From NCBI GenBank assembly GCA_037132255.1, contig JBAXPN010000001.1:276113-340112 (forward strand): a stretch of 64,000 nucleotides of DNA, written 5' to 3'. Each line of letters starts with the position of its first letter. The stretch's first letter is position 1. A model generated the notes under the pieces. That model was not told the DNA's origin. It ran no database searches and saw only the letters and a program-made list of their open reading frames with translations. Source of the stretch: Candidatus Falkowbacteria bacterium. Its GTDB lineage: Bacteria; Patescibacteriota; Patescibacteriia; Patescibacteriales; UBA12465. This document shows positions 1,021 to 28,931 of this stretch, piece by piece. The position numbers and the translations under genes were made by a program.

Positions 1021-1081
1021 ATTATGATATAATTATATTATTACTCTAATTTTAACTTAATTTTGCCCAAAAAGTCAAAAT

Positions 1082-2305: not shown

Positions 2306-2307
2306 CA

Positions 2308-2337
2308 AAAACACCGGTATTAACCCGGTGTTTTTTA
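2308..2337. terminator. bidirectional rho-independent terminator between convergent genes
   Basis: Stem ACACCGG (2311-2317) / CCGGTGT (2325-2331), 7-nt loop. A-run before and T-run after. Confidence 0.75.
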
Positions 2338-2354
2338 TTGAATTAAACCAAGCT

Positions 2355-3635: not shown

Positions 3636-3707
3636 AAATTTATTAATTTTTAGCTAATATTGAACAAAATATATTAAAATGCATCATTTGCTCTTATCTA
3701 ACTAATA

Positions 3708-3736
3708 ATAATACAAAACTAGGCTTAATTTGTCAA
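3708..3736 (-). promoter_or_regulatory. sigma70-type promoter for the 2355..3635 gene
   Basis: Minus strand TTGACA (3736-3731), 17-nt spacer, TATTAT (3713-3708). About 70 nt upstream of the ATG at 3635. Confidence 0.5.
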
Positions 3737-3789
3737 TATTAATACGCAAAAAGCAAATTGAAAAATATCAAAATTATTGGACATAACTA

Positions 3790-3818
3790 TTGACAAAGTT
3801 TTTAATATGTATTATAAT
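3790..3818 (+). promoter_or_regulatory. consensus sigma70 promoter for the wzz-like gene
   Basis: TTGACA (3790-3795), exactly 17 nt, TATAAT (3813-3818). Divergent from the promoter at 3708-3736. Confidence 0.65.
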
Positions 3819-3856
3819 ATATTATTAATCAATAAACTATAAATAGATTAAATACT

Positions 3857-4663
3857 ATGGAAGTTAAAGATTTTTTCCACATTTTAAAGCGTCGTAAAGG
3901 AGCTGTGATTGGCGCTTGGCTTATTTTTATAATTATTGGCGCCGGTGCAACCTTTATCCAACCTCTAAAATATGAAGCTAATTCTCGATTACTAATTGTC
4001 CAGAATATCTCCGGAGTCGATCCTTATACGGTTTCTAAATCCAATGAATATTTGAGTAATCTTTTTTCACAAGTTGTTTACTCTAATTCATTTTTCGAAT
4101 TAGTAACAGGCTCAAATAATTTTGATATTGATAAGAGCTATTTTTCCGATAATTACAAAAAGCAAATGAAGATTTGGCAAAAGACAATTACAGCCAAAAG
4201 TAATAGCGCCGGTATCATTGAAATTTCCATATACCACCCAAATGCCTATCAAGCTAAACAGATTGCGCTAGGTGTTAATGATGTTCTTATTAACCAAGGT
4301 TTTAATTACCAGGGCGGCGATCAAAGCATTAAAATAAAAATTATCGACCAACCTTTAATTTCCGACTATCCGGTTAAACCGAATATTATTTTTAACTTTC
4401 TCGCTTTTTCTGCTCTCGGTATTCTCGCTGGCTGTATCTACTTATATTATTCACCAAATAAACGCTCATCCGTACAACAAGCTTCCCGACAAGCAAATGC
4501 GCTGTCGAAACAAGAGTTTCAAGCAGTTTATAGCTCCCACCAGAGTTATAATAAGCAGGCAGGCCATCCGGCCGAAAAAGTGATGATTAATGAAGATATT
4601 CCGGAAGAAAATATTGAGACCCCTGTTCACGGCGATATGCGTAATCTTATCAATCGATTTTAA
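3857..4663 (+). CDS. Wzz / polysaccharide chain-length determinant family protein
   Basis: 268 aa. N-terminal Wzz-type pattern (FFHILKRRKGAVIGAWLIFIIIGAGATFIQPLKYEANSRLLIV), a second TM near residue 180-200 and a polar C-terminal tail. Confidence 0.65.
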   Translation: MEVKDFFHILKRRKGAVIGAWLIFIIIGAGATFIQPLKYEANSRLLIVQNISGVDPYTVSKSNEYLSNLFSQVVYSNSFFELVTGSNNFDIDKSYFSDNYKKQMKIWQKTITAKSNSAGIIEISIYHPNAYQAKQIALGVNDVLINQGFNYQGGDQSIKIKIIDQPLISDYPVKPNIIFNFLAFSALGILAGCIYLYYSPNKRSSVQQASRQANALSKQEFQAVYSSHQSYNKQAGHPAEKVMINEDIPEENIETPVHGDMRNLINRF

Positions 4664-4782
4664 TTTTATCTTTTAATTATAGACTTTAGCCCTTTACCGG
4701 GCTGAGGCTTGTAATCAAAAATACGAGCTATTCAAGGCGAATAGTAACGAACTTTAACAACAACAAAAAAACCAAACATACG

Positions 4783-5643
4783 ATGAGAAAACTCCTTTTA
4801 TTTTTTGTGGTCTTATTGGTTTGCGCCTGCATTCCAAATAACACCCAGGCTCAATTTGAGTCGCCACTAACAAACTTCAGCTTATACGGTGGCAATATCT
4901 ATTTCAGCAATCAACACGGAGACGGTACGGCTCGTTGGGCTGAATCGCGTATTCTGTTCGGAAGAGGCAACGACTACAGACTTCTAAGTATTGGCGGCTT
5001 CGTCAACTACAATGAAGTTGGTTCAAAAATAGACTCTTTCCTGTACCACGATGTGGAATGGGCGGGCGGTCTAGCCATGAACTTCGGTTCGCAATACTGG
5101 ATGGACTATAATGAAGTTTGGGGCTGGCTCAATGTCGGACTCAAATTCACAAATGACCACGGTGCAATTGCACAATATGACACAAAGCAAAAAGACGAAA
5201 TGTTTTATGCCTTTGGCGGTATTATGTTCAAAAACACCATGAATAGGGGGCCATTCTTTATTAAAAAATTTATGGTCACCTACCAGCAGCCGTATACAAG
5301 CACACGCAACGCCTACTGGGAAGGGAAAGCTACTTATGACACAGCCTCAAACAAAGGCTATCTGAAATTAATAGCCGAAAACACCTTCTGTTCGTTACCT
5401 ATAACTCGCTCGGAAAATTTACGTTTCGAACCGAAAATTATGGGTGCTGCTACTTACCAATTCTTGAATAAGCAAGTTGTTTATTCATTAGGAATTGGAG
5501 TAACCCTGGCTCGCGCTTATAGCCAGGAGATTATGACGCTTGATGCCGGAATCAAATTTGACCCGGTAAAACCAGGTAATATGTACTCAGTTGGAGTGCT
5601 AGTCAACTTTGTTGAACTAGCAAAAGCTATTGCAAACAAATAA
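4783..5643 (+). CDS. secreted beta-barrel-like protein (outer-membrane-protein-like), function unknown
   Basis: 286 aa. Signal peptide MRKLLLFFVVLLVCACIPNNTQAQ ending in the AQ-type cleavage context common in Bacteroidota. Alternating hydrophobic/aromatic beta-strand pattern rich in Y/W/G/N. Confidence 0.55.
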   Translation: MRKLLLFFVVLLVCACIPNNTQAQFESPLTNFSLYGGNIYFSNQHGDGTARWAESRILFGRGNDYRLLSIGGFVNYNEVGSKIDSFLYHDVEWAGGLAMNFGSQYWMDYNEVWGWLNVGLKFTNDHGAIAQYDTKQKDEMFYAFGGIMFKNTMNRGPFFIKKFMVTYQQPYTSTRNAYWEGKATYDTASNKGYLKLIAENTFCSLPITRSENLRFEPKIMGAATYQFLNKQVVYSLGIGVTLARAYSQEIMTLDAGIKFDPVKPGNMYSVGVLVNFVELAKAIANK

Positions 5644-5682
5644 CAATTAATAAAAATTAATAACCCACAAAAAATCGTAATC

Positions 5683-6558
5683 ATGAAAACATGGATGAAA
5701 TGGGCACTAGGTGTCTTAACGCTTATCGCTTTTGCAGTATTGTTCTTTTTCAGCTTCCAAAGCTGCAATAAAAACGACAAAACAAAAATAAGCAAAAGTG
5801 ATTCAACCGCAATCGCACAAAGCAATCAAAACAATCAACTTAAATCTGACCTGGAAGACTGCAATGAATACTCGAAAAGTATGGGGGACTCACTCCGTTG
5901 GACGCGCGAAGAACTTTGCGCCGCTAACGCGATGATTGTATCGCTTAACGATTCTATCTTCAAACTGAACACCTTGCTTGATAACTGTATGAAAGGCAAA
6001 AAGAAAGCTGTGGCTAAAAAAACAGCGGTTCGTTCGACATCTAAGAATACCTACACACCAGAACCTCAACCACAAAAACAAAAAACAATTGTAGCTGCTG
6101 ACAGACCAAGCCGATCAGAAAACAATGCTCTGTGTGGCGATATGTATGCCGGCGACTATAACGGAGAGTATGGAACAACCATAAATGATGAAAGCCAATT
6201 GGTTTTCTTTATGAGCAACAAGGTTGTTAACGCCGGAGAAGGCAAATTACAATTACCAGCGCCTCTTCTGAACTCAACTTCTGGCCAGGACTTTTATTGG
6301 GACAAATCCAAAAATCTATGGATTTGTGAAACAAATATCAATATTACGATTGCCAGGCTTGAAAGCGGGGACCCGGTTGACTGGGCTGCATATATTGGAA
6401 TGCATCCTCAATGGAACTACGAAATGTGGTTGCCGGATGAAGTTGTCAAAACAAAATCAGCCTCATCAAAAACTGCAATCGCAAACGGAGAAATCTGGAT
6501 GCATGAAAAAGATTCAGGAAGCGCCTTCCGTATGCACATCCAATTTCACAAAAAATAG
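5683..6558 (+). CDS. membrane-anchored or lipoprotein-like protein with coiled-coil segment, function unknown
   Basis: 291 aa. N-terminal hydrophobic segment WALGVLTLIAFAVLFFFSFQSC (possible lipobox Cys), heptad-like region, K/P/Q-rich linker and a globular C-terminal domain. 39 nt downstream of the previous gene. Confidence 0.55.
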   Translation: MKTWMKWALGVLTLIAFAVLFFFSFQSCNKNDKTKISKSDSTAIAQSNQNNQLKSDLEDCNEYSKSMGDSLRWTREELCAANAMIVSLNDSIFKLNTLLDNCMKGKKKAVAKKTAVRSTSKNTYTPEPQPQKQKTIVAADRPSRSENNALCGDMYAGDYNGEYGTTINDESQLVFFMSNKVVNAGEGKLQLPAPLLNSTSGQDFYWDKSKNLWICETNINITIARLESGDPVDWAAYIGMHPQWNYEMWLPDEVVKTKSASSKTAIANGEIWMHEKDSGSAFRMHIQFHKK

Positions 6559-6578
6559 CAGAATATCTGTTAAAAAAT

Positions 6579-6606
6579 AAGGCTTAGATAAAACTAAGCC
6601 TTTTTA
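6579..6606 (+). terminator. rho-independent terminator of the 4783-6558 gene pair
   Basis: Stem GGCTTAG (6581-6587) / CTAAGCC (6594-6600), then TTTTT. Confidence 0.7.
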
Positions 6607-6630
6607 ATTTGTAAAAAATAACTAAAGTAT

Positions 6631-6667
6631 AATTAAAACCCCGTCTCTTTAGATGGGGGACGGGGTT
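6631..6667 (-). terminator. rho-independent terminator of the 6706..7914 gene
   Basis: 9-bp GC-rich stem AACCCCGTC (6637-6645) / GACGGGGTT (6659-6667). T-run follows on the minus strand. Confidence 0.65.
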
Positions 6668-6705
6668 AAGCCAATGTATTTATTTAATAGGAAAATTGAT
6701 AACTG

Positions 6706-7914
6706 TTACTTTTTTATAACGCTGATGCTATAAGCTCTTTCGCTACTTTTCATAGTAGCGAGCTGAATGCCAAGCATTTCATTAGTGGCATCATAGAATT
6801 TAGACTGCGTCATGTCGCCATATACGGTCGGATTGGCCAAATTTGGGCCAAATTTGAAGTATAAACGACTGTTATCCTGCTTAATTGAAGCGATACTGAA
6901 AGTTTTGTAACCCCATCCCGTATTCGAGATTATGCGAAGTGCAGAATTAGACCAATTGCTCTGGTGGACGGACGAAATGAAAGGCTGAGATCCATTAGAA
7001 TATTGGGCGTAGTTAATAAAGATTCTGAGTGAATCGGTAGCAACTGTCGCTCCAAGCATTAAGGAATCACGTACCGTTGGTGGATACGAACCGGCAATTT
7101 GATCACCATCTTCACCTGGATAATAAACTATTCCTGGGGAAAAGGTATAAAATTGCCCGTTAAAAGGGTATACGACATACTTTCCACTGCCTGCGCCGGT
7201 AAATACCCAGAACTTCGAGTTTGGGCTATAAGACCATCTGGTTTGTTGTCCGAAATGCAAGTCCTGGGGCGTGTTGTTTGGGAATATTAGGTGCTTAGTG
7301 ATGTAAATTTCACCATTAATGTTCGTATACTCCGGACAAGCCGGTGGATTCGTCCAATTACAGAAAGTACCTGTAACAAAAGGGATTTGTCCGGCAGCGT
7401 AAGGAGGAGGAGAAAAACTACTGATAGTAGAGGCTTTAAAGCCTATATTATAATCATAACCACCTGCTACTTGTTGGTAACCCAGAACGACGATAGTATT
7501 ATCATCCGCGTAAGTTAATGATGCCTTAATCCACAGGGTGCGTGTTGTTACAACACCGGTTAGGGGGTTAGTCGCCGTTGATACTAATTGATATTTGCCT
7601 ATCGCATATTCGTGCTCTACACGAGGTGTATTCAAGATGGCCCCACCGTCGCCGAAGTTCCAGGTGTACTGGTAGTTTGCTCCAGCCGGTAGTGTTGGTA
7701 AGTTCTCCCACCAGAATTTGATTACCAGGTTTGGTAAGGTTTTTAGCGTGTCGGCGGTCACAGCTCCTGTTGATTTTAACACAGCCTTACTGTAATCATC
7801 GACGGGCTTTCCAGAAGGGAAATCATTTTCAGTTATTTTTTGGCAGTTTGCCAACAGAAACACAAGCGGGATAATCATCAACCACTTGTTAAACGCAATC
7901 ATTCTTTTTTTCAT
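6706..7914 (-). CDS. lipoprotein with PKD domain, function unknown
   Basis: 402 aa. Signal plus lipobox-like MIIPLVFLLANC. PKD signature YQYTWNFGDGGAILNTPRVEHEYAIGKYQLVSTATN. Long beta-rich C-terminal region. Confidence 0.6.
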   Translation of the reverse strand: MKKRMIAFNKWLMIIPLVFLLANCQKITENDFPSGKPVDDYSKAVLKSTGAVTADTLKTLPNLVIKFWWENLPTLPAGANYQYTWNFGDGGAILNTPRVEHEYAIGKYQLVSTATNPLTGVVTTRTLWIKASLTYADDNTIVVLGYQQVAGGYDYNIGFKASTISSFSPPPYAAGQIPFVTGTFCNWTNPPACPEYTNINGEIYITKHLIFPNNTPQDLHFGQQTRWSYSPNSKFWVFTGAGSGKYVVYPFNGQFYTFSPGIVYYPGEDGDQIAGSYPPTVRDSLMLGATVATDSLRIFINYAQYSNGSQPFISSVHQSNWSNSALRIISNTGWGYKTFSIASIKQDNSRLYFKFGPNLANPTVYGDMTQSKFYDATNEMLGIQLATMKSSERAYSISVIKK

Positions 7915-8030
7915 GATTATTGGATTTGGGGGTTAGTACTAATTTTCCTATTAAGTTTTGAAGGTACGGAATTTTAGACCTTCTATCAGTTAACTAAATT
8001 TAATTAATTAGCTGAATGAAGGGCCTAAAA

Positions 8031-9131
8031 TTATACAACGCTTTTATAAACTGCTAATACTTGGTCTGAAATATCGTTCCAATTATAATCAGTCTTAACG
8101 CGCTCTAATGCTTTTTGGCCATATACTTTAACTTGTTCTGGTTCGGCCAGCATGATTTCTAATTTATTCTTTAAATCACTAACATTTTTATTCTCAAAGA
8201 TATACCCAGTTTCGCCCAGAGCCTCCTTATTTGCCTCAATATCGCTTACTAAGCAAGCCTGGCCATAACTCATAGCTTCAAGCAGAGCAATCGATAAGCC
8301 TTCGCTTTCTGAAGGTTGGACAAAAGCATAAGCATTCGAATATAGTTCTGAAAGGACTCGGCTAGTTTGGTTACCAGTAAAAATTATATTTGGGTTATCG
8401 GTAGTAGAAAGATGTAGTTCATTTACATAGTCATCGGTATGCGAGCCTTCGCCAACAATTACTAATTTCTTATCAGTATTTAATTCCTTATAAGCATTAA
8501 TTAAATGTTGAATACCTTTATGTCTAACTAGACGGGAAATAGAAACTAAATAATTTCCTTCTTCAAGTCCCCAACGGCGAATTTCGCGAACAGGAGTTCT
8601 CTTGGTAATAGTTGCACCATTTGGAATATAGATAGCTGGTTTATTATAGCGACTTAATACATAACGATTAAGTTCTTTTGAGATCGTAATAATCTTATGG
8701 GCTAATGCGCAGCCAACTTTTTCGCCAAATTTTAAATAAGCACGCGCTGCCTTGCCCCATTTCTGATGATAATAATCCTGGCAATGGAAAGTGAAAACGA
8801 CCGGAGTTCTTGGTTTAAGAATTCTAACTAACCAAATCAGGGAAGAGGGGCCAATTGATTGAAAATGAATAACGTCAACTTTACGTCTCATAAGATCAAG
8901 ACAGGCAAAAAAAGTGAAAGTAATCGCTTCTAAATTTTTACCGGGAAAATTTGGTAAAGCGATGATTTGAATACCTTTATATTCCTTGAGGTCATGGCTA
9001 TAATTACGTCGCGAGTATACTAATACTTTCTGGCCTTTGGAGACCAGGTTAAGGGCTAGACTTTCGACGTATCTTTCGACACCTCCAGTCTTGGCCGGTA
9101 TTCCTTTTTGTCCAATAAACGCGATTCTCAT
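8031..9131 (-). CDS. glycosyltransferase family 4
   Basis: 366 aa. MRIAFIGQKGIPAKTGGVERYVE N-terminus and C-terminal ...PSESEGLSIALLEAMSYGQACLVSDI (E-x7-E region). Confidence 0.85.
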   Translation of the reverse strand: MRIAFIGQKGIPAKTGGVERYVESLALNLVSKGQKVLVYSRRNYSHDLKEYKGIQIIALPNFPGKNLEAITFTFFACLDLMRRKVDVIHFQSIGPSSLIWLVRILKPRTPVVFTFHCQDYYHQKWGKAARAYLKFGEKVGCALAHKIITISKELNRYVLSRYNKPAIYIPNGATITKRTPVREIRRWGLEEGNYLVSISRLVRHKGIQHLINAYKELNTDKKLVIVGEGSHTDDYVNELHLSTTDNPNIIFTGNQTSRVLSELYSNAYAFVQPSESEGLSIALLEAMSYGQACLVSDIEANKEALGETGYIFENKNVSDLKNKLEIMLAEPEQVKVYGQKALERVKTDYNWNDISDQVLAVYKSVV

Positions 9132-9317
9132 ATATTTAATTTAACTGGATATCATACCACTCTATAAAACATTTGTCAACACTTTAACGAAAAATTATCC
9201 ACACCGACAAGGGAATTAGAGAGCTATCTGGCATTTCCTTGTAATACTGGCTTAAATATGGCTTTATGCTTGCTAGCTCAGAGACTCCCATTTCCTTATC
9301 AATATACTTTTTTTCAA

Positions 9318-10073
9318 TTATAAATCCATTTTTTCAGCAATACTTATTAATTCTGGCAAACGCAACCTATTCGGACCACCTCTAAATTTTACAAATTTTT
9401 TATAAATATTTTCACTATAACGGAGAAAATTTAGACGATCTTTGTCTTGAATAAAGGAAGTGTGGGTCTGAAAATCAATTTTATGAATCATCATCCCGCC
9501 TGACGCCAAGGATTTTCTCATCGCCACAAAAGAGGCATCTAAATCATCAACATGCTCGAGGACGTCCTTGCTGAAAATAATATCGTATTTAACTTCTTCA
9601 TCTTTTAAATCCTCAATACCGCGAATCTTATAGCTAAAATCCGAAGAGTTTATAGCTTCCGATTTCGACAGGGAATTAATAACAGAGTCAACTGCTTTTA
9701 ACGCGATAGGCGCCTTTAAATCGTTTTTAATTTTTTCATAAAAAGAAACAGGAGCGCTTAAAACTGGAAAATAATCAATCGCCGAATAAGAACTTGCACC
9801 AGACTCTAAGCTGAGAAGTCCAAGCATTAAATCTGGGCCTGGACCAATTTCTAAAACATTTTTATCTTTGAATAGATCTGGGTTCGCCGCCAAATTCATT
9901 ATCATCTTTAAAATTTCACGATCATAATTCAAATTTTTATCATAATCGCCCAGCGACAACATACGCGGACGCGGAGATTTTAAACCAAGAATAAATTTCT
10001 TTATTCGACTGGAAAGACCAATAAATAGGCCGAGAATGTAATATGTTTGTTGTTTCATATAGTTGTTTATCAT
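9318..10073 (-). CDS. class I SAM-dependent methyltransferase, apparently truncated by a frameshift (C-terminal 44 codons continue out of frame to 9184)
   Basis: 251 aa. Motif I VLEIGPGPD and DIIFSKDVLEHV. Downstream in another frame: ...NGFIIEKKYIDKEMGVSELASIKPYLSQYYKEMPDSSLIPLSVWIIFR*, reachable by adding one base to the T6 run at 9329-9334. Confidence 0.75.
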   Translation of the reverse strand: MINNYMKQQTYYILGLFIGLSSRIKKFILGLKSPRPRMLSLGDYDKNLNYDREILKMIMNLAANPDLFKDKNVLEIGPGPDLMLGLLSLESGASSYSAIDYFPVLSAPVSFYEKIKNDLKAPIALKAVDSVINSLSKSEAINSSDFSYKIRGIEDLKDEEVKYDIIFSKDVLEHVDDLDASFVAMRKSLASGGMMIHKIDFQTHTSFIQDKDRLNFLRYSENIYKKFVKFRGGPNRLRLPELISIAEKMDL

Positions 10074-10124
10074 AATAAATTATTATAATACATTTTATTC
10101 ATTTTGTCAAGTTATTCATCCACA

Positions 10125-10154
10125 AGAAAAAACACCGCTGAATAGGTGTTTTTA
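10125..10154 (-). terminator. terminator downstream of corA (bidirectional shape)
   Basis: Stem ACACC (10132-10136) / GGTGT (10145-10149), flanked by an A-run and a T-run. Confidence 0.55.
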
Positions 10155-10190
10155 TGATTAAATTTGTTTAATATAGAAAGCGCAAATATC

Positions 10191-11156
10191 CTAGTGAAGC
10201 CAGCGTTTTGTTTCAAAAAAGGCAAGCATTCCAAGAGAGCAGGTAAACATAATACTAACAATTATCCAAAAACCATTTGGCTCATTAACAAAGGGCATGT
10301 ACTTCGCGTTCATCCCAAAAGTGCCGGCCAGTAAATTTAGCGGTAAAACAATAACTGAGAAGATAGTTAAAGTCTTCATGATGCTGGTCATACGATCATT
10401 TAAAAGAGACTCATTCGTATTATTTAGAACTTCCACCATTTCCTTCTGATTATCAAGCATTTCCCAAATCCTCTTTGAATCGTCGACTAAACCAACATAA
10501 TATTTTTTAATAGCTGTTTTTTCGACCAAGCTGCTTTTCATTTCCATTAACTGACGCAGAATATTTTTATGATTCTGCATGATCTTGCGGATATTTACGA
10601 TATTACGACGAATAACAAGAATATTTTTCACAGCATCTTTCTGTTTATGCGAAAAAATTATATCCTCTATTTCATTTAAATTAATACTATTTTCGTCTAA
10701 TAGTTGGTAAGTGCTGTCAATTAAATGGCCTAAGATTTCATAGAGCAAAATGGCCGACGATTCAAGGGAATAAGTTAATAGAGAATCGGGACTTTTCTTG
10801 CCGAGGCTAAAAAAATCAGAAAGAGCCTTAAGATTATTATTATTTATGGTAATCAAAAAACCGTGACCGACAAAAAAATCTACTTCTCCAGCAATAATTT
10901 TATCATCTTTAAAAGTCGGGAAATGAAGAACTAAAAAAAGATAATCCGAACCATTAAATATTTGCGGACGTTGGAAAGATACTGAGGCCGCCGAAGCTTT
11001 AAGATGAACCAGATCAAAATTATAGTTTTTTCGTAAATAATCTATTTCGTTTTTTCCGGCATTGACAATATTGACCCATTTTAGTTGTGGCGCTGTACGC
11101 GGATTATCAATAGTAAGCTCTTCAACCCGATCAGATATTTTTTTATAATTAGCCAT
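10191..11156 (-). CDS. corA: CorA-family magnesium/cobalt transporter
   Basis: 321 aa. Two C-terminal TM helices with the GMN motif (LLAGTFGMNAKYMPF). Confidence 0.85.
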   Translation of the reverse strand: MANYKKISDRVEELTIDNPRTAPQLKWVNIVNAGKNEIDYLRKNYNFDLVHLKASAASVSFQRPQIFNGSDYLFLVLHFPTFKDDKIIAGEVDFFVGHGFLITINNNNLKALSDFFSLGKKSPDSLLTYSLESSAILLYEILGHLIDSTYQLLDENSINLNEIEDIIFSHKQKDAVKNILVIRRNIVNIRKIMQNHKNILRQLMEMKSSLVEKTAIKKYYVGLVDDSKRIWEMLDNQKEMVEVLNNTNESLLNDRMTSIMKTLTIFSVIVLPLNLLAGTFGMNAKYMPFVNEPNGFWIIVSIMFTCSLGMLAFFETKRWLH

Positions 11157-11225
11157 AGAATATATAAATTTACTTTGACGAAAGCCTTAATTTATAATAA
11201 AATTAAGACATCACTATTATATCAT

Positions 11226-12431
11226 ATGGTCAATATTTTGGGAATAAATTTAAGTGAATTTAGCCAAACAGAGGTCTTAAAAAAGATCGCTGATTTTTTG
11301 AAAGACAATAAACAACATTATATTGTCACTCCGAACCCGGAAATTATTCTTGCCGCCCATGCGGACGAGGAATTTTTCTATGTTTTGAACCAGGCAGACT
11401 TATCGCTAGCCGATGGCTTCGGTCTAAAAATAGCCGGATTCTTTTTTGGTGAGAATATTCCGCGGGTTACTGGCGCCGATATAACAATCGAATTATTAAA
11501 ATTTTCTTCCGAGAATAAAACGCGTGTCATGATTCTAAACTGGGAAAAAGGCTTATCGCAAATTAATGATATAAAAAATTCACTCAATCAAAAATTTCCC
11601 GGATTAATTTTTGACGTGATTAATATTAGTCGCGAAAAATTTTTGAATGATGAAATAATTAATAAAATTAATCTATACTCGCCGGCAATTTTATTTAATA
11701 CTCTTGGCTTCCCTTATCAAGAAAAGTTAATGTATCATAATATAAATAAATTAGCCTCAGTAAAAGTCGCACTTGGTATTGGTGGTTCATTTGATTTTAT
11801 TACCGAGAAAATTAAACGCGCACCAAAAATATTTCGCGCATTAGGTCTTGAATGGTTTTGGCGCCTGGCTAACGCCTTTAATTACCAAAACTCGGGACAG
11901 AGAATAAAAAGAATTTATCGCGCGACTTTTGTTTTTTTAGCAAAAGTTATAAAAGTTAGATTTATTTATCCCTTTATCTACCGGAATAATGTCGCCTGTT
12001 TTCTTTTTAAAAAAGAGGGGACTGAAACTAAAGTTTTAATTGTTGAACGAACCGATGTTCCCGGACATTGGCAATTACCTCAAGGCGGAACTGATGGCGA
12101 AAACATTGAAATTGCCGGCAGTCGCGAACTACGTGAAGAATTGAGTACCGATAAATTTATAGCTCGCGCAAGTTTTAAAAAAGTTTATCGCTATTTATTT
12201 CGAGATCGCGGCAAGGATGATACGCGCATGTTTAAAAACTACAAAGGACAAAGTCAAGGATTATTTATTGCTGAGTTTACTGGCATAGACCAAGATATCA
12301 AAATTAATTTCTGGGATCACAGCGCCTGGAAATGGGTCCCGACAGACAAACTTCCAGAAAGTGTGCATCGTGTTAGACGCCAGGGTTCAGAATTATTTTT
12401 AAAAAAATTTCAATCGATTAAATTAAATTAA
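11226..12431 (+). CDS. WecG/TagA/CpsF-family (GT26) glycosyltransferase fused to a C-terminal NUDIX hydrolase domain
   Basis: I start at ATG 11226 (MVNILGINL...). The track's TTG at 11085 overlaps corA. The N-terminal ~245 aa are GT26-like (YIVTPNPEIIL..., ADGFGL, APKIFRALGLEWFWRL). The C-terminal ~155 aa carry a Nudix box: HWQLPQGGTDGENIEIAGSRELREELS. Confidence 0.75.
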   Translation: MVNILGINLSEFSQTEVLKKIADFLKDNKQHYIVTPNPEIILAAHADEEFFYVLNQADLSLADGFGLKIAGFFFGENIPRVTGADITIELLKFSSENKTRVMILNWEKGLSQINDIKNSLNQKFPGLIFDVINISREKFLNDEIINKINLYSPAILFNTLGFPYQEKLMYHNINKLASVKVALGIGGSFDFITEKIKRAPKIFRALGLEWFWRLANAFNYQNSGQRIKRIYRATFVFLAKVIKVRFIYPFIYRNNVACFLFKKEGTETKVLIVERTDVPGHWQLPQGGTDGENIEIAGSRELREELSTDKFIARASFKKVYRYLFRDRGKDDTRMFKNYKGQSQGLFIAEFTGIDQDIKINFWDHSAWKWVPTDKLPESVHRVRRQGSELFLKKFQSIKLN

Positions 12432-15989: not shown

Positions 15990-16946
15990 CTAGAATTTTC
16001 GATTATCATGAACCTTGCGGTGAATATCGCGCAATTGTTTATTGGTTACATGGGTATATATTTGAGTTGTCGCTATATTGCTATGACCAAGAAATTCTTG
16101 AACTGTTCTCAGGTCTACTCCTTGATTCAATAAATCGGTGGCAAATGAATGACGCAAGGTATGAGGCGTCGCCATTACTGGCAAACCCGCAATAATTACA
16201 TATTTTTTTACAATATCTTCAATACTCTTAACTGTTAAACGTCTTGAGGCGTTAGTTTTAGCGCCGCCGCGTTTATAATTGATAAAGAGGGCATCATCCA
16301 TATCCTTGCGCTCACCTATATAAGCACGAAGCGATTTAATAGCTCTCGCCGAAAAATAAACTGTTCTTATTTTACTTCCTTTGCCAACAACGGCAATCTC
16401 TAAATCATGGGTCTCATCTTTGATTCGTAATTGGTCACAATTAAGTGCCGCCAGTTCGGCCACGCGCAAACCAGTAGAAAAAAGGGTTTCTAGCAGCGCA
16501 CGATCGCGTAAACCAATAATTGTTCCCGTGCTCGGCGATTCAAGTAAACGAGATAATTGTTCAAGCGTTAAAAATTTAATTTCTTTATCCGCTTTATCCT
16601 TAGCCAACTTAACTTTCGAAGGCGGGAGGGAACTGATATCTTTTTCTACAAAGAACTCTAAAAGTGAGCGTAAGGCAATCAAATAATAGTTCTGGGTTGT
16701 CTTTTTAAGCGTTTTGCGGGTCCTAGGGTCCTGATGACGCGATAAATAAACCTTATACTGCCAAATATGCTCAGCGCTCAATTTTGATGGTGTTAGGCTC
16801 TCTGAATTAGTTTCTTTTAACCAGCCAAAAAACTTCCTCAGAAAACGAGTATAATTTTCCTGTGTTTTTGAGGACAGTCCTTTTTCAATTTCAGAATAAT
16901 CAAGAAAATCAACTAAATATTTAATTATTGCCTTATTTTTATCCAT
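15990..16946 (-). CDS. tyrosine recombinase, XerC/XerD family
   Basis: 318 aa. N-terminal SAM-like core-binding domain. Catalytic C-terminus ...TPHTLRHSFATDLLNQGVDLRTVQEFLGHSNIATTQIYTHV (R..HxxR..Y). Confidence 0.9.
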   Translation of the reverse strand: MDKNKAIIKYLVDFLDYSEIEKGLSSKTQENYTRFLRKFFGWLKETNSESLTPSKLSAEHIWQYKVYLSRHQDPRTRKTLKKTTQNYYLIALRSLLEFFVEKDISSLPPSKVKLAKDKADKEIKFLTLEQLSRLLESPSTGTIIGLRDRALLETLFSTGLRVAELAALNCDQLRIKDETHDLEIAVVGKGSKIRTVYFSARAIKSLRAYIGERKDMDDALFINYKRGGAKTNASRRLTVKSIEDIVKKYVIIAGLPVMATPHTLRHSFATDLLNQGVDLRTVQEFLGHSNIATTQIYTHVTNKQLRDIHRKVHDNRKF

Positions 16947-17000
16947 AGCTGATTAAATTATAGCATAAAATAGGGAAGTGTGTGCACCAAAAAATTTAAA

Positions 17001-17029
17001 TTGACATGACTAGGTATTTATCATAAACT
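17001..17029 (+). promoter_or_regulatory. promoter placing the TSS at or next to ATG 17036
   Basis: TTGACA (17001-17006), 17 nt, TAAACT (17024-17029). The ATG lies 6 nt later. Confidence 0.4.
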
Positions 17030-17035
17030 GCCTTA

Positions 17036-17839
17036 ATGCTTAATTTTATAAGCATTCCCAACCGTCTCGGGTTGATTCGGAACTTTAACAAAATAATACT
17101 GGCCATGGAAAACAACCAAGAAAATGCTAGTCTCGCGCTCATTGAAGAACTCTGCAAGAGGGCGCGAAAAGATTCAAGATTCTATGAGATACTAAAAGAA
17201 CTATCAAACTTATCGAAAGAAAAAATCGATAAGCTTATTATCAACGGACCGCCAGACCGACGCGGTAAAGACAATCATTTGCATTTAATCTCTTTCCCCA
17301 AAATCCTAACTCTTGAAGCATTAAGGGGCGATGAGTATTATTCTAAAGATTGCATTACAGTTATTAGAAACCGATATGGCATACACCTACCTCTACTGCG
17401 TCACTTTGGAGAACAACAGGAACACAATTGTTATCCTGACGAAAAAATCCATATTCGGGTTGATGCAACATTTGGCGGAGGCACCATCATGGATGCCTTT
17501 CAGTCTCTACCGGGCAATTGGAGCCAAAAATGCTTAAGCTGGAATCAATTAATCTTTTTCCTGAGAAAATACCCAACTTGGGTAAACCAGGACGGTATCA
17601 CTCATTTTCTTGTTAAAAAAGATGCGAACAAAGAAATAGATGAAGAACGTCCCCAGGATAATTTAAGAGAGATCCACCTCTACGCTACCATGAATAGGAA
17701 ACCGCCTTACGCCACTCTATCTGGCGATGGAATAAATAGCCAAATAATTTTTCCAAAAATTCGCCGTGTTATTTCACAATCAACCATCAATGCTTATCTG
17801 ACTGAGGATTTTAGACGGGAAGGGCCAATAAACGACTGA
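17036..17839 (+). CDS. hypothetical protein
   Basis: 267 aa (alternative ATG at 17105, MENNQENASL...). No recognisable motif. Looks somewhat GC-richer than neighbouring genes. Lies between the xer gene and the dif-like site. Confidence 0.55.
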   Translation: MLNFISIPNRLGLIRNFNKIILAMENNQENASLALIEELCKRARKDSRFYEILKELSNLSKEKIDKLIINGPPDRRGKDNHLHLISFPKILTLEALRGDEYYSKDCITVIRNRYGIHLPLLRHFGEQQEHNCYPDEKIHIRVDATFGGGTIMDAFQSLPGNWSQKCLSWNQLIFFLRKYPTWVNQDGITHFLVKKDANKEIDEERPQDNLREIHLYATMNRKPPYATLSGDGINSQIIFPKIRRVISQSTINAYLTEDFRREGPIND

Positions 17840-17861
17840 GGAGCCAAAACAAATGTATCTT

Positions 17862-17890
17862 AACCTGGTAATCAAATACCAGGTTTTTTA
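17862..17890 (+). terminator. rho-independent terminator
   Basis: 9-bp stem AACCTGGTA / TACCAGGTT, 6-nt loop, T6 run. Confidence 0.8.
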
Positions 17891-18050
17891 TTTTTAAAAA
17901 ATTAATTATAAATAAAAAATAATAATAAAGTAAATAAACTATAGTCAAAAACATGTTATTAAAGCATCTTATTAACGGGAAGAAAAAAATAATAAAAGAG
18001 GAGGGATGGGCACAAAACAGCCAAATTACCGGGGTTTTTGCTCACACAAT

Positions 18051-18090
18051 ACTTCGCATAATGTATATTAATACACCCATTATGATATAG
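18051..18090. other. dif-like Xer recombination site (atypical or interrupted right arm)
   Basis: 18051-18078 reads ACTTCGCATAA TGTATA TTAATACACCC. The first 20 nt fit the dif consensus as I recall it (E. coli GGTGCGCATAATGTATATTATGTTAAAT). A right-arm-like TTATGATATAG lies 12 nt further on (18080-18090). CATAATG (18057-18063) and CATTATG (18078-18084) form an inverted repeat. Confidence 0.5.
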
Positions 18091-18134
18091 AATAAAGGGC
18101 AGCCTAATGCCACCCTATATAAGCGAGCTTCTTA

Positions 18135-18284
18135 TTAATTAGCCATGGTCATGAGTAATCCCATGAAATGCACATCTGGTTGAAATAGTAGCACGACTTT
18201 AATGATAATCAAAAAAATTCCGATTACAACCATACAAAAAACTAATACAGCCAGGGTAAAAAAAGTTTTGAAAGCACCTTCCAT
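18135..18284 (-). CDS. possible small membrane protein (49 aa), below the ORF-track threshold
   Basis: ATG 18284-18282 to TAA 18137-18135: MEGAFKTFFTLAVLVFCMVVIGIFLIIIKVVLLFQPDVHFMGLLMTMAN. One clear TM helix. Starts 11 nt downstream of the ftsQ stop. Confidence 0.3.
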   Translation of the reverse strand: MEGAFKTFFTLAVLVFCMVVIGIFLIIIKVVLLFQPDVHFMGLLMTMAN

Positions 18285-18295
18285 ATTTTTTTAAA

Positions 18296-19144
18296 TTAAT
18301 TGATAAAGATACGGTCTCCGTAACGTAAATCGATATAATTAGTCTTACTAAAATTATCCTTTATTTTTTCCTTTTTTACAAGAACCAGGCGCTCTATTTG
18401 GGCCTTAGCATCCGTTTTGGTGTTGAAGTAGACAAGTGGACCATCTCGGAACTTAACTTTAATTGTATTGAACTCCTGGTCAATCACAAAGCGCTCGACA
18501 GATAATTCAGGATGAGTGGTAATCTGATTGGCAAGTTCCAAAATAAAATTTAAATAAGCGTCAGAAATATTTATTTTATTTTTATCGTTGATCAAATTTT
18601 CGGCATTACGATTTTCTAAAATTAAATATTTCGATTTATCGTCTTCAGAAACAACAGCCTCTGGGATGATGCAGGCGTCAATTGCGGAGTAAAAAAACTG
18701 ATTTCCCTGCTGAAAAATATAAGAATATGGCCGTTCGCCAACCTTAATAATAAGGGTTTTTGCTGGTCTTTTAATGATTTCAAGCGAGGCTAGATTATAC
18801 GAGCTCAGGATACTATCTTGAGCTTCTTGTTCATCAAATAACCAAATATTTGTCTGCTTAAAGACACCATAGCGCGATTTGGCTTCCTGCTCCTTTATCT
18901 TATTTATGATTTCGTCACTTGAGATACGGGTTAAGCCCTCAACTTTAATATTATTAATTTGCCAAAACGGAGCAGCCATGAAAAACCAAAAAATAAAAAT
19001 AATAAATACAACAATAGCAATAATTAAACAAGCGAATAATCTTTTATTCGGCTTCTTTTTCGGTTGATGAAAAAAAGGATTTGAAAGATTTTTACATTGG
19101 TAATCCTTTTTGATTTTTTTATGGTATTTCCCTTCTCTTGACAT
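18296..19144 (-). CDS. ftsQ: cell division protein FtsQ/DivIB-like (POTRA domain)
   Basis: 282 aa. Basic N-terminus, single TM (LFACLIIAIVVFIIFIFWFFMAA), then a POTRA-like WQINNIKVEGLTRISSDEIINKI. Confidence 0.7.
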   Translation of the reverse strand: MSREGKYHKKIKKDYQCKNLSNPFFHQPKKKPNKRLFACLIIAIVVFIIFIFWFFMAAPFWQINNIKVEGLTRISSDEIINKIKEQEAKSRYGVFKQTNIWLFDEQEAQDSILSSYNLASLEIIKRPAKTLIIKVGERPYSYIFQQGNQFFYSAIDACIIPEAVVSEDDKSKYLILENRNAENLINDKNKINISDAYLNFILELANQITTHPELSVERFVIDQEFNTIKVKFRDGPLVYFNTKTDAKAQIERLVLVKKEKIKDNFSKTNYIDLRYGDRIFIN

Positions 19145-19162
19145 AATTTATAAAATATTGCG

Positions 19163-20314
19163 TTACCAAATAATCTCACGCCGAATATTTGATTGCAGAC
19201 GTACTAAAAATTCATATGGAATAGTATTCATATATCGCGATAAAGCGAGCACTGAATTTCTGTCCTCTTTATTGCTAGACACAATCACAACCGTGTTCCC
19301 TTTTTGCGCGCTAGCGTCTCCAAGATCAAGACAAGTTAAGTTCATGCATACTTTACCCGCAATCGGCGCCCAGACTGATTCGCCCGACATCTGAACTAAA
19401 AACTCAGCACGATTAGAAAGACGCCTGTCTAGGCCTTCAAAATACCCAAAAGGAATAACAGCAATGTTCGTTTCCCTGCTAGCACGGTAAGTTTCATTAT
19501 ATGAAACCGTCTCATTGGGAAGCAGGCGTTGCACGGAAACGATTTGCGATGTGACGTTAATAGCGGGCTGTAAATACTCATTAAAAACTGCCGAAGATTC
19601 ATCAGCGTTGGAAAATGGATCATAACCGTAGAGAGCCAATCCGGGGCGATATGCAGTTAGAAGCTTATTATTTAAAGACAGTAAACCAGCTGAGTTACCA
19701 AGGTGCACCCAGCGCGGAAAATATCCGAATGATCGTAAGGCATCAAGCGCGGCCATAAATTCAGCTTCTTGCGTTTGATTAAGAATTGATTCTTCGTCAG
19801 CGGAGGCTAAATGAGAACAGAGTCCAACTACTTCAACAGAGTCAAGATGTTTTTTATTATCTTCAATAAATCTTGGAAGATCTTTAACGCCTTCGCGATT
19901 CATGCCTGAATTAATAAATAAATGCACTTGAACTTTTTTACCATAGCGTGCTAAATATCTTAATGTTTCTGAGTTATAAATAATAAATTCAGTCCGTTTA
20001 AAGTCGCAGTATCCGTAAGCCTTGAGCGGCATTTCGCCGAGTATTAAAATTTTACGTTTGAAATAACGAAGCGCAATTTGGGCCTCGGGAAAAGAATCAA
20101 CAATAACTATTGGCGCTGTTGTCTTATTCAATATTAAACACATTTCCTTTAGGCCGTGGCCGTAGGCATTCGATTTCAAAACCGGAAATATTTCCGAACT
20201 TCCCTGTCGCTCCTTCAAATAATTAAAATTTGAAATTATTTTTTTGGCATCAATTTCAATTTTATTAAGAGTGTCGTATTTTGGTTTTAATATTTGACGA
20301 AAAAAATTTATCAT
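19163..20314 (-). CDS. alr: alanine racemase
   Basis: 383 aa. PLP-lysine motif PVLKSNAYGHG and a typical two-domain length. Confidence 0.85.
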   Translation of the reverse strand: MINFFRQILKPKYDTLNKIEIDAKKIISNFNYLKERQGSSEIFPVLKSNAYGHGLKEMCLILNKTTAPIVIVDSFPEAQIALRYFKRKILILGEMPLKAYGYCDFKRTEFIIYNSETLRYLARYGKKVQVHLFINSGMNREGVKDLPRFIEDNKKHLDSVEVVGLCSHLASADEESILNQTQEAEFMAALDALRSFGYFPRWVHLGNSAGLLSLNNKLLTAYRPGLALYGYDPFSNADESSAVFNEYLQPAINVTSQIVSVQRLLPNETVSYNETYRASRETNIAVIPFGYFEGLDRRLSNRAEFLVQMSGESVWAPIAGKVCMNLTCLDLGDASAQKGNTVVIVSSNKEDRNSVLALSRYMNTIPYEFLVRLQSNIRREIIW

Positions 20315-26441: not shown

Positions 26442-28931
26442 TTACTTTAATTTATCTTTAATTAATGGCAAGTGCGCCCGACGACTTATTTCCGCTTCTA
26501 CTAAACGAGTATTTTGTCCGTACTTTAAACGACTAAGAGCTCTTATTTTATCGGCCATCCCTGGTCTCTTAACACCCAATATCGGCCAAATGGTATTTAA
26601 AGAAAATGGCCTAGTGGCGCTATTATCCACTAACAACTTAATACAGGCCATGCCCTTATCGACATTTATCAAATCGTATTGATTAAAAACCGGTGAGAAT
26701 TCTTTGACTAAAAAATCGGCATCTTCGGAGCCAATCTTAAAACTTACCATAGTTCCGACGTTACCAAATACCGCCTCTTTGATTTCGTGATTATTATTTT
26801 TACTGAGTTGTCCAATATACTGATGGGCAATAATTAAATCAAGCGCATATTTTCTAGCTTCAGACAAAATCTGACAAATTGAATTGGTAGTGAAATTTTG
26901 GAACTCATCAATATAGAGATAGAAATCTTTTCGAGACTCTGGAGGTAAATCAGTTCTTGATAAAGCTGCCATTAAAATCTTACCGACTAAAATCATTCCC
27001 AGAAGATAAGCATTCATTTCCCCGACAAGACCTTTCGGTAAATCGACCAAGAGAATTTTCTGCCCGTCCATAACTTCACGCAAATTAAAAGCACTTTTTT
27101 GCTGACCGATTATCGGCCGCATCATATCATTAGAAATGAAAGATGTTAATTTAGAGGTAATGTATGGAACAATATTTGCGAGCGCTGCTTCCCCGCCAGC
27201 CTTCTCAGCTTCTTTGCGCCAAAAATCAACAACTGTTTGATTCTTACATTGACTTAATTTATATTTTCGAAACTCCTCGTCAGCCAGAACTTTCGGAATT
27301 TCCATCAAAGTAGAGCCAGACTCCGGATCATCCATGATTAAAAGCATGGCGTTGCGCATATACTGTTCGAACATCGGGCCACCCGTTGCTTTAAGATCAT
27401 ACAACTTATCCAAAATACCAATCATTTCATTTATAACAAAGCTTTTTTGTTCTGGGTAACGCGGGTCGTATTCAAGTAAATTTAGAGCTAGTGGGCGTTC
27501 AATATCACCAGGAGAAAAAATAATAACATCTTCAGCTCTTTCCGGTGGAATTCTTTCGAGAATATCGGAAATCAAATCTCCATTCGGATCGAATACACAA
27601 ACACCTTCGCCGTTTTGAATATCCTGAATGGCCATATTAGCCAAGAGAACTGATTTACCAGTACCAGATTTACCAATAATATAAGTATGGCGACGGCGAT
27701 CCTGCCGCTTAATTCGTATTTCTTTCTTTACACCACGATGAACATTAAGACCGAGCGTAATTCCTTCAGTCGGAATTGTTGCTGGCGCCGGAGCAATTTT
27801 AGATGAAAGCCAAAGAATATTTGGGGTTTCGGTTCCCTTCAAAGGAAAGTGAAAAATACTCGCAAGTTCTTCGCTATTTAGCAAGAAACTATTTTTTTCT
27901 TGAAAATGACGATAAATAAAATCTTGTACTATTTTTTCTGGCGCTCTCTTATTAGCGCGCGAAAAATTATTGCCATAACTAAAATTATTATATTCGCTAA
28001 AACTAGAAACTATATTTTCTAAATACCTGTTCGCGTCCTCTTTTGTTTTCGCGCAAGAAATAATCCGCAAATTAACATTAAGACCTGTCTTTAAATTTTT
28101 CTGCTCAATTGACTTCACCATTTCCTCTTCAATCGCCGACAATTTACGGCTAGAGTTAATTTCCTTATTCTTTTTCATGGCGCCGCCGGTCATAAAAATT
28201 TCGGCCACTATTCCTAAGGGCGTGCTAGCTCTAACGCCGGCCAGCACAGAATTTTTCTTATGTATTTTAGCAACAACACGTCTGGCTTTTCGATGCCAAC
28301 GCTTTTTAGCGCTACGTACTAAATATTGAATTACCAGACTTTCGTCTTTTCCTAATTTTGAAAGAGTATTGATTATTGAATTAAGAGGATCAACCTCCAT
28401 TTTTTGATATGTTTTTATCGGAAAGAAAAAACCGCGAGTCGTTCTAAGAGAGGCCGCGGCGATTTGCCCACTCATACTAAAGGGATTATAATCTTCAACT
28501 TCTTCGATAATGGCATCCGGATAATAAGCCTGTACTTGCTGCTCGATATAACGCAAATTATCAAAAGGCGCAACAATATAAAAAGCTATTTTATTATGAC
28601 TAGCAACAATTTCAAAAGAAAAATGATCATGTCTGCCCGTGAACCAGGCCTTGATCCCACGCTCAGCTTTCAGTCCGCCGACAGCCGCAAATATTGTTTC
28701 TCCCTTGGCAATTTCTTCGCGAAGAGTTTGAACGTTGTTTAATTTCTTATCATCGTCTGGTTTTTCCTTTGGAAGTCTAACCAAAAAGACTTGATGGGGA
28801 AAATAGTGACGACGAGTCAGTATGAAGCGTAATAGTCTAATTAATAAAACTAAAAAAACAATGAGCGCTCCTGCCCAAAGTAAAATGATAAACAAATAAT
28901 CGGCCGCGCTCGGCGTCGTTATTATGGTCAT
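26442..28931 (-). CDS. membrane-anchored P-loop ATPase, VirD4/TraD/TraG (type IV coupling protein)-like / HerA-FtsK superfamily
   Basis: 829 aa. N-terminal TM (YLFIILLWAGALIVFLVLLIRLL), Walker A IIGKSGTGKSVLL, FDPNGD, Walker B-like FYLYIDEFQNF. Gaps of 2 nt to the upstream ORF and 6 nt to dnaX. Confidence 0.7.
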   Translation of the reverse strand: MTIITTPSAADYLFIILLWAGALIVFLVLLIRLLRFILTRRHYFPHQVFLVRLPKEKPDDDKKLNNVQTLREEIAKGETIFAAVGGLKAERGIKAWFTGRHDHFSFEIVASHNKIAFYIVAPFDNLRYIEQQVQAYYPDAIIEEVEDYNPFSMSGQIAAASLRTTRGFFFPIKTYQKMEVDPLNSIINTLSKLGKDESLVIQYLVRSAKKRWHRKARRVVAKIHKKNSVLAGVRASTPLGIVAEIFMTGGAMKKNKEINSSRKLSAIEEEMVKSIEQKNLKTGLNVNLRIISCAKTKEDANRYLENIVSSFSEYNNFSYGNNFSRANKRAPEKIVQDFIYRHFQEKNSFLLNSEELASIFHFPLKGTETPNILWLSSKIAPAPATIPTEGITLGLNVHRGVKKEIRIKRQDRRRHTYIIGKSGTGKSVLLANMAIQDIQNGEGVCVFDPNGDLISDILERIPPERAEDVIIFSPGDIERPLALNLLEYDPRYPEQKSFVINEMIGILDKLYDLKATGGPMFEQYMRNAMLLIMDDPESGSTLMEIPKVLADEEFRKYKLSQCKNQTVVDFWRKEAEKAGGEAALANIVPYITSKLTSFISNDMMRPIIGQQKSAFNLREVMDGQKILLVDLPKGLVGEMNAYLLGMILVGKILMAALSRTDLPPESRKDFYLYIDEFQNFTTNSICQILSEARKYALDLIIAHQYIGQLSKNNNHEIKEAVFGNVGTMVSFKIGSEDADFLVKEFSPVFNQYDLINVDKGMACIKLLVDNSATRPFSLNTIWPILGVKRPGMADKIRALSRLKYGQNTRLVEAEISRRAHLPLIKDKLK

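Follow-up and report, generated by a model that had tools for sequence, protein, structure and literature searches.

The DNA analyzed here (the window) is a stretch of 64,000 nt from a Candidatus Falkowbacteria bacterium, positions 276,113 to 340,112 of contig JBAXPN010000001.1. It contains a 32-nt element resembling dif, the chromosomal site of Xer recombination, between a gene for a tyrosine recombinase (xer) and an ftsQ-like gene. An initial annotation of this DNA had proposed a dif-like site here and, with it, a candidate replication terminus. The element and its neighbors, including several open reading frames (ORFs), are as follows.

15990–16946, minus strand: xer, encoding a 318-aa tyrosine recombinase of XerC/XerD/XerA type (NCBIfam, Pfam and alignment), transcribed away from the site
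16957–16986, minus strand: promoter-like element of xer, immediately 5′ of its start, with an extended −10 TGCTATAAT (promoter scan)
17036–17839, plus strand: lineage-specific 267-aa ORF between xer and the site, in a variable cargo slot (no family match)
17862–17885, plus strand: terminator-like hairpin closing the 267-aa ORF (terminator scan)
18049–18080, plus strand: conserved 32-nt dif-like block, ATACTTCGCATAA / TGTATA / TTAATnnACnTAT (per-column conservation)
18049–18061, plus strand: left arm of the 32-nt site, ATACTTCGCATAA
18062–18067, plus strand: center of the 32-nt site, TGTATA
18068–18080, plus strand: right arm of the 32-nt site, TTAATACACCCAT
18096–18116, minus strand: terminator-like hairpin closing the transcript of ftsQ and the small ORF, 16 nt from the site
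18135–18284, minus strand: conserved 49-aa membrane ORF downstream of ftsQ (translation; a 49-aa gene in the public annotation)
18296–19144, minus strand: ftsQ-like gene (POTRA_1; profile matches), with its 3′ end toward the site
19163–20314, minus strand: alr

The site sits between two convergent terminator-like hairpins. The sequence originally singled out as dif-like, ACTTCGCATAATGTATATTAATACACCC, was found at 18051–18078 on the plus strand, inside the non-coding stretch 17840–18134, as had been described. The distance from the xer start to the site, previously put at about 1.1 kb, was measured as 1,105 nt. The ftsQ gene had been said to end at the site; the ftsQ-like gene is indeed transcribed toward it, but the 49-aa membrane ORF intervenes. 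The product of this hydrophobic ORF begins MEGAFKTFFTLAVLVFC... and has homologues in distant relatives (L003 4612–4752 and L035 8957–9124). It may be a small division-associated membrane protein.

Likeness to dif was examined against the E. coli K12 site, GGTGCGCATAATGTATATTATGTTAAAT (PMC2731167). The first 20 nt of ACTTCGCATAATGTATATTAATACACCC are identical to this published sequence at 17 positions, TGTATA spacer included, exactly as first reported. An exact 16-mer common to both, CGCATAATGTATATTA, covers the XerC-side arm for the most part, the spacer in full and 3 bases at the start of the other arm, and its chance expectation is ~1e-4 per 64-kb window on both strands, as estimated from base composition. 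The full 28 nt agree with E. coli dif at 18/28, and chance 28-mers of the AT-rich window score equally. A 28-nt match to the dif sites of E. coli, B. subtilis, V. cholerae and H. influenzae was discarded as an indicator, being no better than that of chance 28-mers. Significance with respect to known dif sites is confined to the left arm and the spacer, and likeness to E. coli dif is genuine but partial.

The 32-nt block has two arms around a 6-bp center with partial dyad symmetry. When the right arm TTAATACACCyAT is reverse-complemented, 7/13 positions agree between the arms (outer ATA/TAT, inner TAA/TTA and one T). The G+C content of the site is 9/32 nt (28%) versus ~37% for the window. The site occurs once in the 64 kb, and 100 shuffles gave 0 matches. 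No second or canonical dif was found in the window, where the best right-arm-like 11-mers (e.g. 17016–17026) are isolated. Incidentally, the 11-nt left arm ACTTCGCATAA has two more exact copies in the window, at 6930–6940 and 60984–60994, both on the minus strand and within coding regions in different reading frames. These make 3 copies versus 0.05 expected, a count that 0/100 shuffles reached. Relatives are without extra left-arm copies up to 10 kb from the site, save the half-sites of L003, L035, L101, L106 and L177.

Related loci were collected in two ways. Searching a genome collection with the Xer protein yielded 79 loci, of which 42 are Falkowbacteria-type with Xer identity of 69–93%. 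The names borne by close Xer homologues likewise put the window among Patescibacteria of the Falkowbacteria type. The 20-nt core is present in 39 of these 42, the remaining 3 having too little upstream DNA, and it is 20/20 identical in 35 of the 39 and 18–19/20 in the other 4. A metagenome scan with the site pattern CTTCGCATAATRTAKATTAAT alone, in which xer was unused, returned at least 118 stretches, 105 of them with enough left flank. A column profile was made from 132 unique sequences, and conservation per column was taken in 40 unique xer-retrieved and 99 unique pattern-retrieved sequences. The block 18049–18080 is sharply bounded, with ~2 bits per column inside and ~0 in the flanks, and reads ATACTTCGCATAA-TGTA(T/G)A-TTAAT-n-n-A-C-n-T-A-T. 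No variation occurs in the left arm or the spacer. In the right arm, the five inner positions are likewise fixed and are followed by a conserved A-C...T-A-T, with the consensus TTAATnnACnTAT over the 132 unique sites. A C-run/T-run signature to the right of the site is weakly conserved, and the flanks, both toward xer and on the opposite side, are unalignable between species.

Across about 140 distinct related loci, the 32-nt block hardly varies. Conservation among relatives had been named beforehand as a test of the site, and the test was strongly passed. Because of this conservation, chance resemblance to dif is excluded. The initial annotation had also regarded the site as possibly interrupted, with its right arm 12 nt further on. 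This part has to be given up, as the adjacent TTAATnnACnTAT is the conserved right arm and 18081–18090 is unconserved. The right-arm-like TTATGATATAG (18080–18090) and the CATAATG/CATTATG repeat with its 14-nt spacer are present in this genome, but conservation stops at 18080 in relatives. The site is contiguous rather than interrupted.

Two other identities were considered for the conserved block. The public annotation calls a 45-aa ORF across the site (17953–18090, plus strand, corresponding to L239 8857–8994), which would make the site part of a short peptide gene. However, the conservation edges are sharp, there is no codon periodicity, and within the ORF only the 32-nt site is conserved, so the call is probably spurious. 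A structured RNA or tRNA was rejected with no Rfam match, no tRNA and fold z-scores of −0.40 and +0.15.

More distant loci with 45–49% identical xer (L044–L079, from Paceibacteria, Kaiserbacteria and similar) were looked at separately. No full comparable dif was recognized upstream of xer in these Paceibacteria-type loci, only the short motif TGTCGCACAATA, which lies within ~70 nt of the xer start in 13/37, in either orientation. Several others of these loci have AACCkGCGAAGGTT...ACTATAGCAyAAA...TTGCAAG upstream of xer. Both kinds of motif may be counterparts of the site in other classes of the Candidate Phyla Radiation (CPR).

Linkage between the site and xer was followed through the pattern-retrieved loci. 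Among the matches listed, xer lies on the left-arm side, on the opposite strand and with 63–95% identity, in 103 of the 105 informative loci, which bears out the proposed genetic linkage of the kind found in single-recombinase modules. The two exceptions have different flanks within the ‘site’, and these xer-less matches are probably unrelated to it. The xer-site distance is 19–2029 nt in the pattern-retrieved loci listed and typically 50–150 nt in genome loci. On the right-arm side, ftsQ is 190–600 nt away in most loci listed, and it is on the minus strand there in essentially all listed loci with enough flank. The order core genes - xer - site - ftsQ - alr is kept across about 140 distinct loci (63–95% Xer identity).

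The gap between xer and the site behaves as a variable cargo slot, and in more than 12 lineages it is filled by 260–2029 nt, mostly unrelated in sequence. Inserts are found in L001, L002, L004, L010, L020, L028, L035, L036, L039, L040, L042 and several metagenome loci; they are mostly unrelated between lineages, and only L001 and L042 have one gene in common. The 267-aa ORF in the window matches no family in Pfam, NCBIfam or PHROGs, and none of the 79 genome loci has a homologue of it; the ends of the gap in the window are homologous to L001. No second site copies flank the xer-site inserts, save half-sites in L027, L035, L101, L106 and L177. In L035 (~9963), L101, L106 and L177, where an insert separates the main site from xer, an extra left arm ATACTTCGCATAAT abuts the xer promoter, inverted with respect to the main site. 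L027 has a partial direct copy of the left arm at ~9934. These extra copies may serve as a Xer operator or be left over from element turnover.

The same loci bear on whether the site is an operator or promoter of xer. Its usual position 50–150 nt upstream of xer would suit such a role, as would the four loci in which an extra half-site abuts the xer promoter. Against this, site and xer are anywhere from 19 to 2029 nt apart, and whole genes can intervene. A promoter or operator was rejected on two further observations: unrelated genes split the site from xer in more than 12 lineages, and the TGnTATAAT promoter stays beside xer in relatives at any xer-site distance.

The conserved order also speaks to the idea that xer belongs to a mobile element as its integrase and that the site is the attachment scar of this element, neither having a housekeeping role. 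In favor of this, Pfam shows a generic phage-integrase fold only, and variable cargo lies beside xer. However, the gene order is kept across the about 140 loci, each locus has one site with no flanking direct repeats, and 2.9 million viral contigs yielded 0 matches to the site (and 0 to the phage attachment junction described below). We give this idea almost no credence.

A relative was found in which the site itself has been used for integration. The locus L003 (contig JBAZJV010000003.1) has no intact site and has two hybrid junctions instead. The junction beside xer reads ATACTTCGCATAA-TGTATA-TTAAGCGAAGTAT. The other, 5 kb off, reads AAAAGTGTTTAAAAG-TGTATA-TTAATACACCTAT, after which the customary flank resumes with the small ORF, ftsQ and alr. 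A sister genome from the same study, L009, has the same flanks with an intact empty site. The insert is the following feature.

L003 4843–9858: inovirus-like prophage of ~5 kb (Zot ATPase, hybrid junctions)

The insert encodes a Zot/pI-type assembly ATPase (PF05707, 49.5 bits; phrog_197, 58.5 bits) and small membrane proteins. A 94-aa ORF with a signal peptide, a hydrophobic segment and a basic tail was read as coat-protein-like, and a 478-aa ORF in the pIII position has a predicted N-terminal signal and C-terminal anchor. No recombinase or integrase family was matched in the insert, and it has no obvious replication initiator. Filamentous phages and integrative elements use host Xer to integrate at dif (PMC5357621). 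With no recombinase of its own and with hybrid dif-like junctions that share the center, the insert bears the signature of a mobile element exploiting the host Xer, its Xer dependence being putative. Because the two junctions share TGTATATTAA, exchange took place in or beside the proposed central region.

In the inferred phage attachment site, one arm is degenerate and the other repeats the host left arm in inverted form at 12/13 positions, as would be expected if both arms can be occupied by one protein. Close to one of its ends, at ~9804 in L003, the element contains a further left-arm-like copy. Inoviruses of CPR hosts are on record (PMC6813254), in a paper whose main text makes no mention of dif or Xer. 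The prophage junctions show recombination at the core of the site, which counts against a regulatory element, a peptide gene and a chance resemblance alike; we consider it highly improbable that the site is any of these.

Viral sequences were searched further. The IMG/VR relatives of the L003 Zot are four small contigs with 40–66% identity, none with a recognizable site. A looser left-arm pattern gave 34 matches in viral contigs. Most of them have a right half that is either unrelated or like that of classical dif, and none was used as evidence. Five of the matches, in low-GC IMG/VR contigs (L205, L211, L215, L222 and L228), are near-palindromic, TACTTCGCwTAA-N6-TTAwGCGAAGTA, and lie near terminase large-subunit genes. 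These contigs are tailed-phage fragments. Their palindromic sites may be attachment sites for Xer-dependent integration.

The recombinase was compared with family models and solved structures. Against NCBIfam, it scores 222.5 bits with both the XerD model (cut-off 329.6) and the XerC model (cut-off 335). With the XerA model NF040815 it reaches 192.4 bits (cut-off 220), and with the XerS model NF003462, over the C-terminal half only, 116.9 bits (cut-off 267). Because the scores fall under the XerC, XerD, XerA and XerS cut-offs, the 318-aa protein represents a distinct Xer lineage. Its Pfam domains are Phage_integrase and SAM-like N domains. The best solved relative is E. coli XerD (1a0p), with which it aligns end to end at 126 bits, the conserved catalytic-motif regions being covered as read from the alignment.

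By analogy with XerS and XerH, both arms are probably served by the adjacent Xer alone. Indirect evidence for a single recombinase comes from the palindromic left arm at the junction in L003 and from scores that are the same for XerC and XerD, and gene-site linkage has been described as a possible hallmark of such systems (PMC5357621). Alternatively, the site could be a dif of the XerC/XerD type, with the adjacent Xer on the left arm and a second, unlinked paralogue on the right arm. In favor of two recombinases, the arms clearly differ and are both conserved (left invariant; right TTAAT..AC.TAT), the left arm and spacer belong to the XerC-side type, and the best solved relative of the protein is XerD. 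However, no second tyrosine recombinase was found in the 64-kb window or about 200 loci, and the XerC and XerD scores are not only identical but both under cut-off. In addition, gene-site linkage is typical of single-recombinase systems, and the xer-side junction of L003 is a 12/13 left-arm palindrome that would be without the arm of a second protein. We regard two recombinases as rather unlikely, and keep to a single Xer on both arms.

Whether the site marks the replication terminus was examined by gene orientation and skew. Of the 43 ORFs right of the site, 37 are on the minus strand, and orientation on the left is mixed, in agreement with the bias originally noted. In 40 related loci, ~100% of right genes are on the minus strand and 50–89% of left genes on the plus strand, with convergence in all relatives. 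In a 9-kb extension past the left window edge, uvrC, rplJ and rplL are on the plus strand, 20–27 kb left of the site, pointing to it. Raw GC skew is ~−0.1 on the right and ~0 to +0.1 on the left. Known dif sites lie near the skew peak, at a median of 7 kb, up to 200 kb and, in E. coli, at 39 kb (PMC2731167). All this would fit a site that is the terminus and the switch point of strand asymmetry.

Skew was tested on local sequence as raw, third-position and fourfold-degenerate skew with bootstrap, the last over 140 distinct loci. Over the 27 kb to the left, raw skew stays around zero or slightly below it and is never clearly positive. For minus-strand genes, fourfold G-over-C skew on the coding strand is −0.18 to −0.19 on the left versus −0.12 on the right, and T-over-A skew is 0.343–0.360 versus 0.335. 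For plus-strand genes, the two skews are −0.22 and 0.199 on the left, and −0.39 and 0.222 on the right, a comparison that is weak with only 9 genes, several of them ribosomal, in the right-side plus class. The fourfold skews pair by gene strand and not by side, whereas a skew reversal at the site would predict the opposite pairing of strand classes. Of the proposed terminus, the convergence of gene orientation at the site is confirmed, but neither raw nor fourfold skew reverses within 10–27 kb.

A skew switch located at the site is not supported. This result is no refutation, because tens of kb may separate a published dif site from the skew peak. Whether the site is the terminus and strand-asymmetry switch seems evenly balanced between yes and no, and that it lies within the terminus region is about an even chance. 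No tblastn match to dnaA was obtained in the window or 200 loci with segments of E. coli DnaA. The left flank (window 1–11000, L080 1–10000) is dominated by envelope-polysaccharide genes (glycosyltransferases, Wzy_C, Wzz and GHL15), and a WecG-NUDIX fusion lies at 11085–12431. These polysaccharide genes may be horizontally acquired, and a left flank with mixed orientation and atypical skew would fit a plasticity zone.

The block 18049–18080 is very probably a chromosomal Xer recombination site (dif) that forms one module with the neighboring xer. The initial proposal of a genuine Xer-type site is upheld by its sequence and conservation, by its linkage to xer and by the prophage integrated at the central hexamer. 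In the mechanism we propose, Xer protomers would bind the two arms flanking the 6-bp TGTATA. When a chromosome dimer forms, two copies of the site would pair, and strand exchange across the central region would yield monomers. The left arm and spacer are classical XerC-side in type and the right arm TTAATnnACnTAT is lineage-specific, and the adjacent Xer alone would serve both. The filamentous prophage would hijack the same reaction to integrate at the site. Dimer resolution is the presumed function, and any coupling of the system to FtsK is likewise presumed.

Several points weigh against this interpretation. The right arm in the window, TTAATACACCC, agrees at only 4/11 with the XerD-binding arm TTATGTTAAAT, which is otherwise highly conserved in classical dif (PMC2731167). 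One clear integration event is available, that of L003. Single-copy status rests on the 64-kb window rather than the whole genome, and a second Xer might be encoded elsewhere in the genome. The skew does not reverse at the site within 10–27 kb, ‘no reversal’ being the better fit in the fourfold test of 140 loci. No ftsK was found in the window or any of 200 loci by tblastn with E. coli FtsK segments. The evidence as a whole is computational and comparative. FtsK is annotated in at least one CPR bacterium, TM7x. An 829-aa protein in the window (26442–28931, minus strand), between dnaX and a 159-aa ORF, has weak matches to TrwB/TraG/VirD4 coupling proteins and HerA. It carries DUF8128 in the public annotation and is not an FtsK homologue by the tests run.

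In its widest form, our proposal is that Falkowbacteria and neighboring Parcubacteria-type CPR bacteria have an undescribed single-recombinase module for resolving chromosome dimers. It would consist of a 318-aa Xer that is not XerC, XerD, XerS, XerH or XerA and a gene-linked hybrid dif with a classical left arm and spacer and a new right arm. CPR inoviruses would exploit it via an inverted left-arm copy, and it may be uncoupled from the skew-defined terminus. We hold this full proposal to be as apt to fail as to stand. No description of a Patescibacteria dif site or Xer system was found in the literature searched. If true, neither a mobile element that exploits Xer nor a defined dif would have been known from the CPR before. 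The CPR makes up a large share of bacterial diversity, and because almost none of its members have been cultured, its chromosome maintenance has been inferred only from gene lists. An invariant 32-bp site would serve as a landmark to orient and check CPR genome assemblies, and it would predict the entry point of prophages and small cargo genes in CPR genomes. The 318-aa protein and the 32-bp site make a testable pair, for which E. coli or an in vitro assay would do and no culture of the organism is needed. With both a classical XerC-side sequence and gene-site linkage, the site would stand between XerCD and single-recombinase systems.

Among known systems, classical dif/XerCD (E. coli, most Proteobacteria and Firmicutes) has the same layout of arms and 6-bp spacer, with CGCATAATGTATATTA identical, and likewise a low-G+C, non-coding position between convergent genes and one copy (in 64 kb here). 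It differs in the XerD arm TTATGTTAAAT, which is absent here (4/11), and in that xer is linked to the site here and its protein fits neither the XerC nor the XerD equivalog model. Archaeal XerA/dif is set apart by the missed XerA cut-off and by the bacterial host here.

XerS/difSL of streptococci and lactococci is similar in that the recombinase gene adjoins the site as one module (PMC5357621, PMC2731167). Its arms are also asymmetric, one being the better match, and its role is chromosome dimer resolution, which would be the role here too. However, XerS has ~356 aa versus 318 aa here, where the protein is under the XerS cut-off, and difSL is 31 bp with an 11-bp center and unrelated arms, whereas the block here is compatible with a 6-bp center equal to the E. 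coli spacer. In XerH/difH of Helicobacter and Campylobacter, a single recombinase is again encoded near the site, and the arms are imperfectly inverted, the left one more conserved or bound. XerH, with 354–362 aa, is only weakly related (59.8 bits to 5jjv), and the difH arms AGTTATGAAAA / AAAAGTTTGA are unrelated to the site here.

XerL/dif of Legionellales offers a parallel in that a lineage-specific dif was revealed by a mobile element (LME-1) with a dif mimic integrating there (PMC9765430). The phylum, recombinase lineage and site sequence are different, and XerL was tested experimentally whereas the system here is computational. Linkage of xerL and dif is not described in the abstract (PMC9765430), in contrast to the linked xer here.

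The L003 element resembles CTXphi, VGJphi and TLCphi in having inovirus genes without an integrase at a dif-like site, with hybrid junctions sharing the center. As in TLCphi, one arm of its own attachment site is degenerate. Unlike these phages, the L003 element has a CPR host, and its good arm would be an inverted copy of the left arm of the host instead of mimicking the right arm.

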